Assembly: GCA_965222115.1 (NCBI GenBank)
Contig: CBDCTJ010000003.1
Location: forward strand, 1-64,000
DNA: 64,000 nucleotides
Source: Planctomycetota bacterium
GTDB taxonomy: Bacteria; Planctomycetota; PLA2; JAEUHO01
Direction: 5' to 3'
Shown here piece after piece: positions 16,434 through 20,001 of the stretch. Below the pieces are notes generated by a model, which was not told the origin of the DNA, did not search any database, and was given only the letters and a program-made list of their open reading frames with translations. A program made the position numbers and the translations under genes. The stretch's first letter is position 1. Every line of letters starts with the position of its first letter.

Positions 16434-16937
16434 ACAGGTGGCTCCCCGGCGGATTCGATGGAAATCTTGCAATACCGAATCATGAGCCAACGGTTCGTGC
16501 AGCCCAAGCAGACATTGTTGGATGCAAACGCAATGGCCGCGCGGATCCTGGCGACGTCAACTGGCTTCCCGCAAGTGCACAGAGGGTCCCACACAGCCAT
16601 GCTCTTGAACCTCCACAAGCGGACTCATCGAGTCAAGATCCAGCATAGGAAGTGCAAGTGATTTCGAGAGTATGTATTATGAACTCAACAGCTTCCTAAG
16701 CTGAATGTCGGGAGTCCGAATCTCATTGGGTACTTCTTGAGTTGATCGGAAACAACTATCGCGAGAAGGTGACCAAGAGGCGGTAGCAAGAAAATTGGAA
16801 TCGAAAAGAGCAAAGCCAAGACTCTGCCCTTTATGGAAGACCAGCCTGCATTACGTGCTGGCTGGCAATGACGTGCTCCCCGAATTCGATACCGGGTTGA
16901 GTGAGAGTTTCCGCATCGTATGATGAGGAGACAGAGC

Positions 16938-17216
16938 ATGAAGAAGAAGCGTCACAATCCTGAGCAGGTGATCCGCAAGTTGCGGAAGGCCGAGCAGATG
17001 AAGTCTGCTGGCAAGTCCGTAGGTGAGATCTGCCAAGCCCTGGAAATCAGCGAACAGACGTACCACCGTTGGAAGGCACGTTACGGAAACGCCGATGCAA
17101 GCGTGGCGAAGCGCGTTCGAGAGCTAGAGGCCGAGAACCGGCGCCTTAAGAAGGCTGTTGCCGATCTCACGATTGACAAGCAGATTCTCAAGGAGGTCGC
17201 CGAGGGAAAATGGTAG
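16938..17216 (+). CDS. IS3 OrfA (HTH) transposase subunit
   Basis: MKKKRHNPEQVIRKL..LEISEQTYHRWK..LEAENRRLKKAVADL. Confidence 0.93.
   Translation: MKKKRHNPEQVIRKLRKAEQMKSAGKSVGEICQALEISEQTYHRWKARYGNADASVAKRVRELEAENRRLKKAVADLTIDKQILKEVAEGKW
17204..17210 (+). promoter_or_regulatory. Putative -1 programmed frameshift site G_GGA_AAA (orfA/orfB)
   Basis: X_XXY_YYZ heptamer in the orfA frame just before the orfA stop; a -1 shift enters the orfB frame (GKMVGP). Confidence 0.75.
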
Positions 17217-17781
17217 GCCCAGCTCGCAAGCGCGAGGCTGTTCGCCTTGTGCGTCGCCGGCTGGGCTACTCCGAACGTCGAGTTTGCCGTGCACTTGGCG
17301 TGTCTCGTTCCACGGCGAGGCGCAAGCCTGCACAGTCAAGACTCAATCTCAAGCTACTGGAGCGCATTCTCGAACTCGTGCGTGTAAATCCACGGTTTGG
17401 CTACCGTCGAATCCACGCGTTGCTTCGGCGCGAGGGCTGGAAGATCAACCTAAAGCGTGTGCATGGCATTTGGCGCCGAGAGGGCCTAAGAGTCCCTAAG
17501 AGACAAAATAAGCGCATGCGGCTGGGCTCAAGCGCACAGGGTTGTGTTCGGAATCGAGCAACGCATCGGAATCACGTTTGGACGCTTGACTTCGCGTGGG
17601 ACGTGACCAGCGAGGGGCGACAGATAAAGTTCTTGCCGATCGTTGATGAATACACGAGGGAGTGTCACGCGTTGAGCGTAGGAAAGTCGATTCGCGCTAC
17701 TGACGTACAAGACACTCTTGAGCGTTTATTCGAAGAACAAGGGGCACCTATGCACATCCGCTGCGCGTGCTATGTCTCTTT

Positions 17782-17787
17782 TGTCAA
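17782..17787 (-). promoter_or_regulatory. Perfect -35 (TTGACA) of a putative circle-junction promoter
   Basis: It points out of the element end. After circularisation it sits 17 bp from GAGTAT (weak -10) and faces the transposase. Confidence 0.6.
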
Positions 17788-17789
17788 CC

Positions 17790-17990
17790 TGTGATTCTGA
17801 GAAACCGTGGGATGTCCAATCGAGCAACGGATCCGAGCTTTCCCTATTTGGGTGCTCAACGTGCCTCATCCGGACTGAACCCGAAGGAGCGGAGGGTGCC
17901 AAGCGGAGCTGTCGGGATGTCTCAAATCGAGGTCCCATGACAACGGACGACATGTCCTCCTCTCCGATTTCTCGGAGCCTTCGGTAAGTT
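17790..17990 (-). ncRNA. Candidate bridge/seek RNA in the IS110 3' non-coding end
   Basis: GAAA-tetraloop hairpin at 17962-17977, further stems, and short segments matching the reconstructed target and donor (see findings). Boundaries are guessed. Confidence 0.55.
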
Positions 17991-17991
17991 C

Positions 17992-19245
17992 TTAGGCTGC
18001 TTCGGTACTTTTCTCCTTCCATTGGTGATTGACGTCGAAGGGGACGCGCTTCTTCATCACCGCGAAGGCGTAGAGAAGCAGCTTATTCATACAAGCACCA
18101 AATGCGGCCATCTTGGATAGAGGTCGAACGGCGCGATTAGTGAGGTGGTCGTAATGTGCGGCGATGCGGGGGTTGTGCTGGGTGGCGGCCAGTGTCGCCA
18201 TATATAGGATGGTTCGAAGTTGGCTGCGACCGCGGCGAGTCATGCGAGTCGCCGGATCGGCATTGCCCGTTTGTCTTCGTCCAGGATTTGTGCCTGCAAG
18301 CTTGATCAGTTGACGACCGTTTGCGTAGTTGTCAATGGGGCCAATCTCAGCGATCAAACCGGCGACGGTCAACCAGGACATACCGGGAATCGTTGAGAGA
18401 TACTCGGCCTCCTCAATGCAATTGAGTGCACGCTGGATCTCGGAGCCGAGGTCGTCCATTTGATCTTGGGCGAGGTCGATGCGTGCGACTAAGCGCTGGA
18501 TCTCACTTGCCAGAACTTGGTTTCCTTGTCGCGGTGCGACGCTTGTTTTGGCCTTTTCGATGAGTTGTCGGACCTTGTGCCGCCAAAGTCGCCGGCCGCG
18601 CGCGGCTTCTTTGGCTTGGGCTACCAACTCTGGCTCTGACATCTGCGCGATATCGAATGGTGTAAGTCCCAGTCGTAAGACGGCCAGCGCGCCGGGTGAG
18701 AGCGTCTTGGACCAATTGCCTGTGAACTCGGGAAACCAGCCGTAGATTTGATGCGCGAGGAGTGTTTTGAGTCGGGCTCGCTCAAATCTTAGGCGACTAA
18801 GTTCTCCCCAGGCACGGCGAAGCGCAACGTAGTTGGGTGGCATCAACTGCGTCTGCGTGACCATGCCGATACGCAAGAGGTCAGCGATCTGTTCCGCGTC
18901 CGTGATGTCGCGTTTGTCGCGTCCCATTTGGCGTGCCTCTCGCACCCGATGGGTGGCCAGTGGATTGACAATGGAGTAGCGTTCTCCGGCTGTTGCGAGA
19001 TAATCTGCGATAGCAGGCCAAACATGCCCCGTGGCCTCGAACGCGTAGTGCGCCCTCCCATTCAAAGGAACATGGCGAGCTGCGCGCCGACGAAGCTCTT
19101 GGAAGCCTTGGATCGAATGAGGGATTTTAAATCGCGTGATGCGTGAGCCGCTGGCCCCGAGAATGGCCACGACATGACCAGTAGTGGCCAGATCGATTCC
19201 AACCGCGATATCTTGAGGACTGAGGTGAGGGCGCTTGAGTTCCAC
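17992..19245 (-). CDS. IS110-family DEDD recombinase/transposase
   Basis: AVGIDLA, FEATG, VNP, KRDITDAE, LSTIPGM, AGTNPGRRQTG, RRGRSQLR. AGGAG-preceded GTG start; frame intact. Confidence 0.95.
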   Translation of the reverse strand: MELKRPHLSPQDIAVGIDLATTGHVVAILGASGSRITRFKIPHSIQGFQELRRRAARHVPLNGRAHYAFEATGHVWPAIADYLATAGERYSIVNPLATHRVREARQMGRDKRDITDAEQIADLLRIGMVTQTQLMPPNYVALRRAWGELSRLRFERARLKTLLAHQIYGWFPEFTGNWSKTLSPGALAVLRLGLTPFDIAQMSEPELVAQAKEAARGRRLWRHKVRQLIEKAKTSVAPRQGNQVLASEIQRLVARIDLAQDQMDDLGSEIQRALNCIEEAEYLSTIPGMSWLTVAGLIAEIGPIDNYANGRQLIKLAGTNPGRRQTGNADPATRMTRRGRSQLRTILYMATLAATQHNPRIAAHYDHLTNRAVRPLSKMAAFGACMNKLLLYAFAVMKKRVPFDVNHQWKEKSTEAA

Positions 19246-19311
19246 TGTGTGTACTCCTGATTCGTGAGAGTTTTGGGAGACACAGAGTAGGGCCAGGGGC
19301 CTCGCCTCACT

Positions 19312-19367
19312 TAGCACGCGAGTATGTCCTTCTCGAAGGCCTCTGGCCTCCAAGAAGGACATACTCG
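19312..19367. repeat. Inverted repeat whose inner arm (19312-19333) is the exact reverse complement of the element's circle junction
   Basis: tagcacgcgagtatgtccttct versus junction agaaggacatact-CG-cgtgcta. Confidence 0.9.
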
Positions 19368-20001
19368 ATAACGGTCCAGAGTTCGTTGCGAATCAACTGC
19401 GCGAATGGCTTGCGCGCCGAGGAGTGTTGCCGCTCTACATCGAGCCAGGAAGTCCATGGCAAAACGGATACGGCGAATCGTTCATCGGGCGTCTCAGAGA
19501 TGAGGTCTTGAACCGAGAACTCTTTACGAGCTTGCTCGAAGCTCAAGTCGTCACGGAAGACTGGCGAATCGAGTACAACAAGAGTCGACCGCACGGTGCG
19601 CTTGGCTACAAAACCCCAGAGGAATTTGCAGCTTCGTGCATCCGCGCCGCCTAGGGCGGGTGCGCGGCACGGAGGCACGAAGCAAGAAAGTTAGGGACTC
19701 TCACAACCGCTGGTAGCGCTATTGGGGGCACGTCAAACGAGTTACGCCTGATTTGAGTTCTGGTAGCCCTTGCACAAGTGTAATTGTCGCTGGCACAACT
19801 GCGTACTTAAATTTGGCACCCTCTGAACTGAGTTCTGAGGAGTGCGACAGTTACAACCAAGTTCGCCCAATCAATCAGACACGAATTCGTGTGGGGCAAT
19901 CGCACGCGACGAATTCAAGCCAAATAGAGCGCGCGCGACTAAGATGACTTTCGAACTGGGAGTGGCTTCCATGCTCGTGCGGCAACGGCTGACAAACGAC
20001 A

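Follow-up and report, generated by a model that had tools for sequence, protein, structure and literature searches.

The bridge RNA of IS110-family insertion sequences (ISs) is described as a 5' stem-loop and, after it, two internal loops, the first of which binds the target and the second the donor (Durrant et al. 2024, PMC11208160). According to the same description, each loop has a 5' side that pairs with 8–9 nt of the bottom strand, its 3' side doing so with 4–7 nt of the top strand, and all four guides of IS621 are said to include the core (PMC11208160). Transposase lengths within the family are given as 395–455 aa for the IS110 subgroup and 330–350 aa for the IS1111 subgroup (Siddiquee et al. 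2024, PMC11187229), and promoters formed at the junction of the joined ends have been reported for IS621, ISEc11 and ISEc21 (PMC11187229, PMC12288879). Here, we examine positions 17766–17991, minus strand, of a 64,000-nt stretch of a Planctomycetota contig (CBDCTJ010000003.1; hereafter, the window, meaning the whole stretch). These 226 nt run exactly from the stop codon of an IS110-family transposase gene to the last base of its element, and comparison with homologous loci suggests that they very probably encode the bridge RNA of that element. ISEc21, which is described as targeting the same class of transposase motif, has its RNA upstream of the gene (Siddiquee et al. 2024, PMC11187229).

An earlier note, made from the letters of this DNA, had proposed a bridge or seek RNA 3' of the transposase gene, ordered as 5' hairpin, target loop and donor loop. 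Its five sequence features were re-read from the sequence and all lie where it had placed them on the minus strand, and both the structure and the covariation of guides with DNA described below bear out the proposal.

Fold and conservation of the RNA

Relatives of the window transposase number 246 at E ≤ 0.001 (8000 candidates scored); most are metagenomic, and the best is 72% identical, with proteins P0002–P0006 spanning 67–72%. Using a 51-sequence protein alignment as the query, we took 80 metagenome loci (157 of 211 pattern matches confirmed) and added 35 genome loci (37 of 55 confirmed), a scan of genome contigs with a single protein having given 30 pattern matches and no relatives before it was redone with the alignment. 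The genome loci come from metagenome-assembled genomes (MAGs) of Vicinamibacterales, Gemmatimonadota, Eisenbacteria, Methylomirabilota, Thermoleophilia and others. Among 61 relatives of the window genome no close copy was found, the best non-self match being 33% identical. Among the matches listed by plasmid annotation, those of full length with labels of the ISfinder type (e.g., ISBth13, ISBth166 and ISSep2) are at no more than 31.9% identity, ISEc21 not being among the listed ones, and literature searches returned no paper on this clade; the ISfinder-wide supplementary tables of both 2024 papers may list members.

The sequence [A/C]TAGCACGC[G/C] closes 73 of the 80 close loci with enough downstream DNA, 218–262 nt past the stop codon, and the remaining seven, in which no right end is recognisable within 330 nt, are contig ends or rearrangements. 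From the close loci, we obtained 48 different 3' ends, 47 of which were aligned (alignment A2); L092, in our numbering of loci, was omitted for a deletion of ~20 nt in its target loop. The transposases of the aligned 3' ends are 52–58% identical to that of the window. The transposase tree, a quick one, omits L039 and L107, which have stops in the gene; a left-end call for L045 was discarded as wrong, and L081 stands outside the counts because its contig stops short of the right end.

The RNAalifold consensus of the 47 aligned 3' ends contains 49 pairs, 25 of them with compensatory changes. Three pairs in the donor loop, a UGA/UCG pairing of columns 152–154 with 202–204 that would bury the right donor guide, were dropped from this fold before counting, leaving 46 pairs in nine helices. 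Over these 46 pairs, 96.6% of cells are paired, and 25 pairs and 250 cells have changed on both sides. None of five pairing measures was reached in any of 500 shuffles, and when the partners are shifted by 1–3 columns, only 36.9–58.6% of cells pair.

Read 5' to 3', the RNA consists of an outer stem P1, the 5' hairpin P2 and a stem-loop of P3 and P4 with a large internal loop, assigned to the target, followed after a short linker by a stem-loop of P5 and P6 with an internal loop, assigned to the donor, and by a tail of about 60 nt that holds an invariant TTGACA-like box and the terminus of the element. P1 encloses the 5' hairpin and the target-binding stem-loop, and the donor-binding stem-loop lies outside it, downstream. 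Both in the window and in every homologue examined, the RNA lies 3' of the gene. Its parts in the window, all on the minus strand, are as follows.

17814–17985, minus: predicted structured bridge RNA (consensus fold; 146.4 bits with covariance model R1)
17962–17977, minus: 5' hairpin CUCCGA-GAAA-UCGGAG, helix 2 (99.6% paired over 47 sequences)
17939–17946, minus: left target guide CCGUUGUC, 5' side of the first internal loop (columns 54–61)
17904–17910, minus: right target guide AGCUCCG in the register shared by the family, 3' strand of the first loop, its CG facing the core CG
17860–17865, minus: candidate left donor guide GGCACG, 5' side of the second internal loop (assigned by position)
17821–17826, minus: right donor guide UGCUCG, 3' side of the second internal loop (columns 199–204)

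The window sequence itself forms 42 of the 46 consensus pairs, and its minimum-energy fold (nt 1–180) contains all nine helices, with both internal loops also zipped up. The earlier note had cautioned that GUUGUC could instead pair with GACAGC, and the minimum-energy fold does close the loop in this way, which does not conflict with a role as a guide. A covariance model of the RNA (R1, 184 positions) has this place as its sole match in the window's genome at 146.4 bits, the next match being at E 0.43. Over 38 further loci, R1 matches 23 places, 17 of them full-length at 101–184 bits, and it also gives weak full-length matches (18–27 bits) 3' of the gene at three loci of a clade 34–35% identical in the transposase. 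A covariance model and covariation of guides with their DNA across homologues were among the checks named in the earlier note; the aligned homologues share one fold, and the target guides and the right donor guide vary with their partners in the DNA, as described next.

Guides and their partners in the DNA

The DNA segments that the guides would address lie at the two junctions of the element.

19366–19367, minus: left core copy CG, on the target side (junction reading and empty-site allele)
17764–17765, minus: right core copy CG (junction reading and empty-site allele)
19367–19374, minus: left target CCGTTATC, the reverse complement of GAT AAC GG (D-N-G) in the host IS3 transposase gene
17756–17763, minus: right target CAGCGGAT, read at the junction
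17766–17773, minus: right terminus ATAGCACG, the left donor (alignment of 47 right ends)
19246–19365, minus: left end of 120 nt, starting with AGTATG, the right donor (alignment of 50 left ends)

In the window, CCGUUGUC equals the sense of the left target CCGTTATC (19374–19367) with one rG·dT wobble, reaching as far as the core's first base, and it would base-pair with the target's bottom strand. In 43 unique pairs of RNA and insertion site, CCGUUGUC goes with the left targets CCGTTGTC (23), CCATTGTC (10), CCGTTATC (5, window included) and CCATTATC (1), whereas the guide CCAGACUC goes with CCAGACTC (3) and the guide CCUUGGUC with CCCTGGTC (1). All 18 positions at which guide and target are not identical have an RNA G over a top-strand A or an RNA U over a top-strand C; these are wobbles with the bottom strand (rG over dT and rU over dG). 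The left target guide proposed in the earlier note thus holds, in that it covaries with the flanking target.

On the transposase tree, two changes of guide class are seen. The CCAGACUC clade comprises nine rows (Shimodaira–Hasegawa-like approximate likelihood ratio test, SH-aLRT, 97) and is nested among nearly identical elements that target D-N-G; its right target guide has also switched, from CUUCCG to UGUCCG, while the donor loop is unaltered. The clade is thus an instance of natural retargeting. Its sites (L050, L058, L063, L064, L066 and relatives) are a conserved intergenic sequence, ..TGAC[G/A]TAA..TGCCAGACTC-N ^ CG-GACAC..GGAGCC.ATGCCACAGC.., where the caret, here and below, marks the boundary of the element. 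A GC-rich hairpin lies upstream of this target, in which no Rfam match and no rve gene were found. At L037 and L145, the guide CCUUGGUC stands with the left target CCCTGGTC, i.e., GAC CAG GG, encoding the D-Q-G of a transposase of the DQGSQF type with an rve domain; this is a second case of natural retargeting, to the D-Q-G form of the motif. A fourth guide form, CCGUACUC, is seen at L081 with the left target CCATATTC, 6 of 8 positions being identical, one a wobble and one a mismatch.

On the donor side, it is the right guide that covaries. UGCUCG complements CG plus AGTA, the core and the first bases of the left end, one of the pairs being a G·T wobble, and its ..CUCG, which complements CG and AG, is invariant. 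Column 200 is A, C or U with left ends starting AGT, AGG or AGA, respectively, and is complementary in 13 of 15 types of RNA and left end; the exceptions are a mismatch in L033 and the G·T wobble of the window. The third base of the left end has changed twice on the tree, each time with a complementary change in the RNA, and this guide, too, was correctly assigned in the earlier note.

For the right target guide, we propose a register in which GCUCCG (17909–17904) has its G at 17904 facing the first core base and its upstream bases facing the right target. The proposal follows from the two loops being built alike, the ..CCG of the first facing the core as the ..UCG of the second does. Across 58 unique pairs of RNA and site, scored over right-target bases 1–6, this register gives 193 paired cells with the elements' own sites versus 164.8 ± 7.2 with shuffled ones, a value reached in 2 of 2000 shuffles. 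In the CCAGACUC clade, it produces seven contiguous pairs, GUGUCCG over CG-GACAC. The window's GCUCCG would match the CG-GAGC of two uninterrupted IS3 paralogues in its genome (L149 and L150) perfectly.

The candidate left donor guide, GGCACG, equals the sense of the right terminus AGCACG (17771–17766) over 5–6 nt. The terminus reads AGCACG in 47 of 47 aligned rows and ATAGCACG in 46 of 47, L083 having ACAGCACG. As an alternative candidate for this guide, GAGCACC (17857–17851) was rejected, as it sits in the inner stem of the donor loop.

A number of observations weigh against the assignment of a bridge RNA with these four guides. Taken by itself, the fold of the whole 217 nt in the window is ordinary (z −1.52, with 21 of 200 shuffles folding as well or better). 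A search of Rfam 15 over 17000–20000 (E ≤ 10) returned three chance matches to microRNA families, none of them in 17766–17991. The right-target pairing is loose, most of the D-N-G-targeting members having the core plus 1–3 bases. The place of the left donor guide is occupied by GCUCG, a mismatch, in 27 of 72 loci, and the right terminus is invariant at the paired bases, so that this guide is beyond a covariation test. The independent events are few (two changes of guide class and two of the third left-end base), and kinship among the sequences inflates the shuffle tests. Finally, of the two left guides, that for the target extends over no more than the first core base and that for the donor over none of the core, the right guides being those that include CG. 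At one homologous locus, Rfam 15 gave no match at E ≤ 1, and no curated RNA family in Rfam 15 covers this RNA.

The single sequence by itself is suggestive and not decisive. In 5000 first-order Markov sequences of 226 nt and the same composition, an 8-mer within one mismatch of CCGTTATC occurs in 5.2% and an exact TCCGCT in 3.8% (the real region has TCCGCT twice), and a 6-mer within one mismatch occurs in 69% for AGCACG and in 52% for TACTCG. All four guide matches in the observed order occur in none (0/5000). The two donor matches by themselves are thus no better than chance, and it is the comparison with homologues that carries the case.

The element, its insertion sites and its ends

The element that carries this RNA interrupts a gene of another IS, and its remaining features are listed here.

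17766–19365, minus: insertion sequence of the IS110 family, 1600 bp when the core copies on either side are not counted (junctions read)
17992–19245, minus: gene for the 417-aa transposase/recombinase, from a GTG start to the TAA stop codon (17992–17994)
17782–17787, minus: −35-like TTGACA, 18 nt from the right end
17210–17765, plus: upstream part of the interrupted IS3-family orfB (HTH_21 and rve; Pfam rve 1.8e-10)
19366–19654, plus: downstream part of the interrupted IS3-family orfB, from DNGPEF onwards (Pfam rve_3 5.6e-28 on 19424–19654)

The left junction reads CCGTTAT-CG^AGTATG with the core at 19367–19366, and the right junction GCACG^CG-CAGCGGAT with the core at 17765–17764. On the minus strand, the flank ..GGACCGTTAT-CG is followed by the element start AGTATGTCC.., and the last bases of the element, ..GACATAGCACG, by CG and the other flank, CAGCGGATGTG.. 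Removal of 1602 bp brings back the frame of the host orfB as ..M-H-I-R-C-D-N-G-P-E-F... An empty-site allele was found in DNA run X2 as a 164-nt contig that bridges 17742 and 19366 via 21 other letters; it has an unbroken H-I-R-C-D-N-G with a single CG and five further differences from the window. This allele is that of a related copy or strain, and excision is not proven by it. Of the sequencing runs listed for this stretch, four are of DNA and none is of RNA; the DNA runs, searched as contigs, all belong to a single study, among whose samples the source is probably included, and no circle junction was found in these contigs. Two IS3 paralogues of the same genome (68% identical, contigs C1 and C7) are uninterrupted and read F-I-R-S-D-N-G-S-E-F with ..CCATTAT-CG-GAGCG.. 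at the site; an unbroken copy of the host IS3 itself was not found in this genome, which has only these 68%-identical paralogues. With the empty-site allele and the uninterrupted paralogues, the junctions, CG core and natural target given in the earlier note stand. The host element comprises an orfA-like reading frame (16920–17216) and the split orfB (17210–19654), both on the plus strand.

The transposase open reading frame (ORF) is intact, with 417 aa and the catalytic positions kept. Its product matches DEDD_Tnp_IS110 (PF01548, 1.1e-22) and Transposase_20 (PF02371, 1.3e-21) in Pfam, scores 181.9 bits against the NCBIfam model NF033542, 'IS110 family RNA-guided transposase' (cutoff 140), and aligns with the solved IS621 chain 8wt6_A at E 5e-20 and with the ISCro4 transposase at E 3.6e-18. 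Residues D18, E70, D113 and D116 are the same in 51 of 51 family sequences. Residue 326 is aligned to the serine of ..YESG.. in IS621, which we take to be the nucleophile; it is a threonine in the window, with the family having serine in 33 of 51 sequences and threonine in 18 of 51.

Across the family, only the first base of the core is fixed. It is C at both junctions in all 43 unique insertions, whereas the second base is equal on both sides in 16 of 43 (CG/CG in 15 and CC/CC in one) and differs in 27 of 43. The left core copy has G, C, A or T as its second base; the right copy has G or C depending on the element, being CG or CC in 47 of 47 aligned homologues. The CG core of the earlier note thus holds for the window and not for the family. 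At L038 and L040, the same element stands between the same flanks (14 nt on the left and 12 nt on the right) in two different metagenomes, and the sole difference between the two is the second base of the left core copy, C versus G.

The left flanks, read on the other strand, start with D-[N/Q/S/D]-G in 52 of 59 unique cases. Of ten longer flanks tested, nine match models of rve-type integrase cores (seven above the rve_3 cutoff, two short and weak), and one has no match. On the evidence of these flanks, the clade always inserts antisense into the D-N-G (or D-Q-G) codons of rve transposase genes of other ISs, an insertion that breaks the catalytic motif of the host element. The extent to which this can proceed is illustrated by one MAG, G061 (L117; loci L155–L178), in which 24 places match the flank of the host element and 22 cover the site. 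Twenty-one of these 22 copies carry the IS110 element and one is empty (L178, ..CCCGTTGTCG^GTGCGCAGG..), i.e., the element has almost saturated its targets in this MAG.

The ends of the element carry further conserved signals. At a distance of 18–19 nt from the right terminus, a TTGACA-like hexamer is present in all of 32 elements, and joining the ends would create [G/C]AG[T/G/A]AT across the junction at a spacing of 17–18 nt, again in 32 of 32; in the linear element, no sigma-70-like promoter was found. A subterminal repeat, ATA..TAT, flanks the donor and extends to 6 bp in the window (GACATA/TATGTC). By analogy with work on IS621, ISEc11 and ISEc21, the DEDD recombinase, with this RNA bound, would carry the circularised element (junction ..ATAGCACG-CG-AGTATG..) to a site reading ..CCGTTRTC-N.., with strand exchange at the C-N core. 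Circle formation would join the −35 box of the right end to the −10-like hexamer across the junction, and this junction promoter would turn on transcription of the transposase gene, the RNA then forming the 3' portion of that transcript.

The left end of the window copy is unusual in having a palindromic insert of ~37 nt. The palindrome has 23-nt arms (19319–19341 and 19345–19367) that include the left core copy together with the element's first 13 nt, and directly after it, at 19309–19320, is a 12-nt inverted copy of the right terminus (compare 17764–17775), 46–57 nt inside the left end and absent from the other left ends. Together, the palindrome and the 12-nt copy read as an inverted copy of the circle junction, and the insert might be left over from an aberrant recombination or might serve as a regulatory or decoy site. 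At a shared position of the alignment, about 35–45 nt upstream of the start codon, many homologue left ends have CTCGCGT(G/C) or CCGTGC; such motifs resemble the reverse complement of the right terminus and core (CGCGTGC) and may be a short internal inverted repeat.

Alternative readings and comparison with known systems

The precise scheme of the earlier note was of an IS1111-type element whose right target guide, UCCGCU (17907–17902), lies on AGCGGA, i.e., on right-target bases 2–7 without the core. In the window this guide has the appeal of a contiguous 6-bp match (6/7 in its register), where the register shared by the family reaches only 6/8 with two mismatches, and two traits of the element are those of the IS1111 group, namely an RNA 3' of the gene and a right end longer than the left (226 vs. 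120 nt). Across the 58 pairs of RNA and site, however, the UCCGCU register is unspecific, with 193 paired cells versus 196.6 ± 4.7 after shuffling and 1606 of 2000 shuffles reaching the observed value. Its matches stem from an invariant CGC of the RNA set against a common GCG of the targets, and it fails completely in the CCAGACUC clade, whose seven contiguous pairs with CGGACAC are formed in the family register. The guide order is that of ISEc21, an IS110-type element, and unlike that of the IS1111 members studied, and the 417-aa transposase exceeds the 330–350 aa of IS1111. We consider this scheme unlikely. What remains of it is the loop strand, correctly identified with the register misplaced, and the RNA position, the only point on which the IS1111 attribution fits; guide order, repeats and transposase length are those of the IS110 group. 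Less probable still is that the conserved 3' end serves as a structured 3' untranslated region, a terminator or a protein-binding DNA end and is no guide RNA. Its last 60 nt (tail, −35 box and terminus) are indeed conserved as DNA signals, and the small RNAs Ssr9 and Asr9 of ISPpu9, an IS110 member, are described as regulatory and not as guides (PMC12288879). Yet a DNA-binding role would not yield 25 pairs with compensatory changes, and a purely regulatory RNA would not have loops that covary with the insertion site and with the left end.

A different question is whether the RNA is of the bridge kind but the window copy is an immobile relic, inserted once and now decaying, which we regard as possible, if on the doubtful side. 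The activity of this copy is called into question by its branch, the longest on the tree (0.65), by its being the only copy in its genome and by an actual target with two mismatches to the right target guide over 8 positions. Its palindromic left-end insert is unique, occurring in 0 of 49 other left ends, and the linear form has no promoter-like site. The sites of the two IS3 paralogues, CCATTAT-CG-GAGC, would fit the guides (two wobbles on the left and a perfect 6 nt on the right), and both are unoccupied; in G061, by contrast, a relative has filled 21 of the 22 host copies. Against decay stand the intact ORF with all conserved catalytic positions, the retention of 42 of 46 RNA pairs, and the intact termini and −35 box. 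The threonine at the nucleophile position, shared by 18 of 51 family members, is no copy-specific defect. Gene, RNA and ends are intact in a copy that is single, has an odd left end and may not be active.

Returning to the reading of a bridge RNA, we tentatively, and with close to even confidence, picture a widespread soil and sediment clade that combines RNA of the IS110 type with the RNA location of the IS1111 group, perhaps as an intermediate in the proposed move of the RNA from one end of the element to the other, and that lives as a specialised parasite of ISs. The G and U of CCGUUGUC fall precisely on the third codon positions of GAY-AAY-GG, so that all synonymous forms of D-N-G would be tolerated through wobble pairing to the bottom strand, and the same would apply to CCUUGGUC and D-Q-G. 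If this picture is true, the clade is able to inactivate almost every rve-type transposase gene in a genome (21/22 related host copies in one MAG), and an IS that lives by breaking the catalytic motif of other ISs may limit their spread in Acidobacteriota-type and related genomes. Bridge recombinases are under development as programmable tools for DNA insertion, excision and inversion, and the clade would offer a data set of about 50 natural RNA variants with a clear fold, two natural retargetings that alter only the target loop, tolerance of any second core base, and an RNA at the opposite end from that of the closest structural relatives. Such a data set bears on the modularity of the RNA and on how it switched from one element end to the other. 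Even the target motif, like the two-loop RNA and the principle itself, is already published; new here are the clade, the 3' position combined with an IS110-type RNA, the natural retargetings and the tolerance at the second core base.

The likeness to IS621 lies in the DEDD recombinase and in the order of 5' stem-loop, target loop and donor loop, as far as that system is described. With IS621 and the IS110 group as described, the element further shares a 3' side of the loop that complements 4–7 nt of the top strand including the core, a short ATA..TAT repeat around the donor and an expected junction promoter. Unlike in IS621, the outer stem here encloses the 5' hairpin and the target loop, and the transposase has 417 aa versus 328 aa in the solved IS621 chain. 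The core is C-N here (CG in the window), whereas that of IS621 is CT. In the published account of IS621, moreover, the RNA lies in the left end, whereas here it lies in the right end, 3' of the gene, and the left guides here do not span the whole core.

ISEc21, by its published description, has the same class of target motif, and when the 'top strand' of the papers is taken as the strand of the transposase gene, it likewise has the bottom-strand match 5' of the top-strand match in its RNA. It also shows no duplication beyond the shared bases and has a circle-junction promoter. It differs in having its non-coding region and seekRNA upstream of the gene and a transposase of 358 aa. With the IS1111 group, as represented by ISEc11, ISKpn4 and ISPa11, the element shares a long downstream non-coding region with the RNA, a longer right end, and an S or T before the conserved G in the C-terminal G..P....[S/T]G (PMC11187229). 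Relative to these three elements as described, however, the guide order is reversed here, the subterminal repeats are of ~3–6 bp versus 7–17 bp, and the transposase has 417 versus 330–350 aa (PMC11187229). A bridge RNA in the left end, upstream of the gene, is an IS110-group trait that the element lacks. A downstream non-coding region is mentioned for some IS110-family members (Siddiquee et al. 2024, PMC11187229), so the combination of a 3' RNA with IS110 traits is not unheard of. Ssr9 of ISPpu9 was considered as a precedent for a downstream RNA and dropped, being described as not required for transposition and not a bridge RNA (PMC12288879). By its guide order, short repeats and 417-aa transposase, the element resembles the IS110 group and is not IS1111-like.

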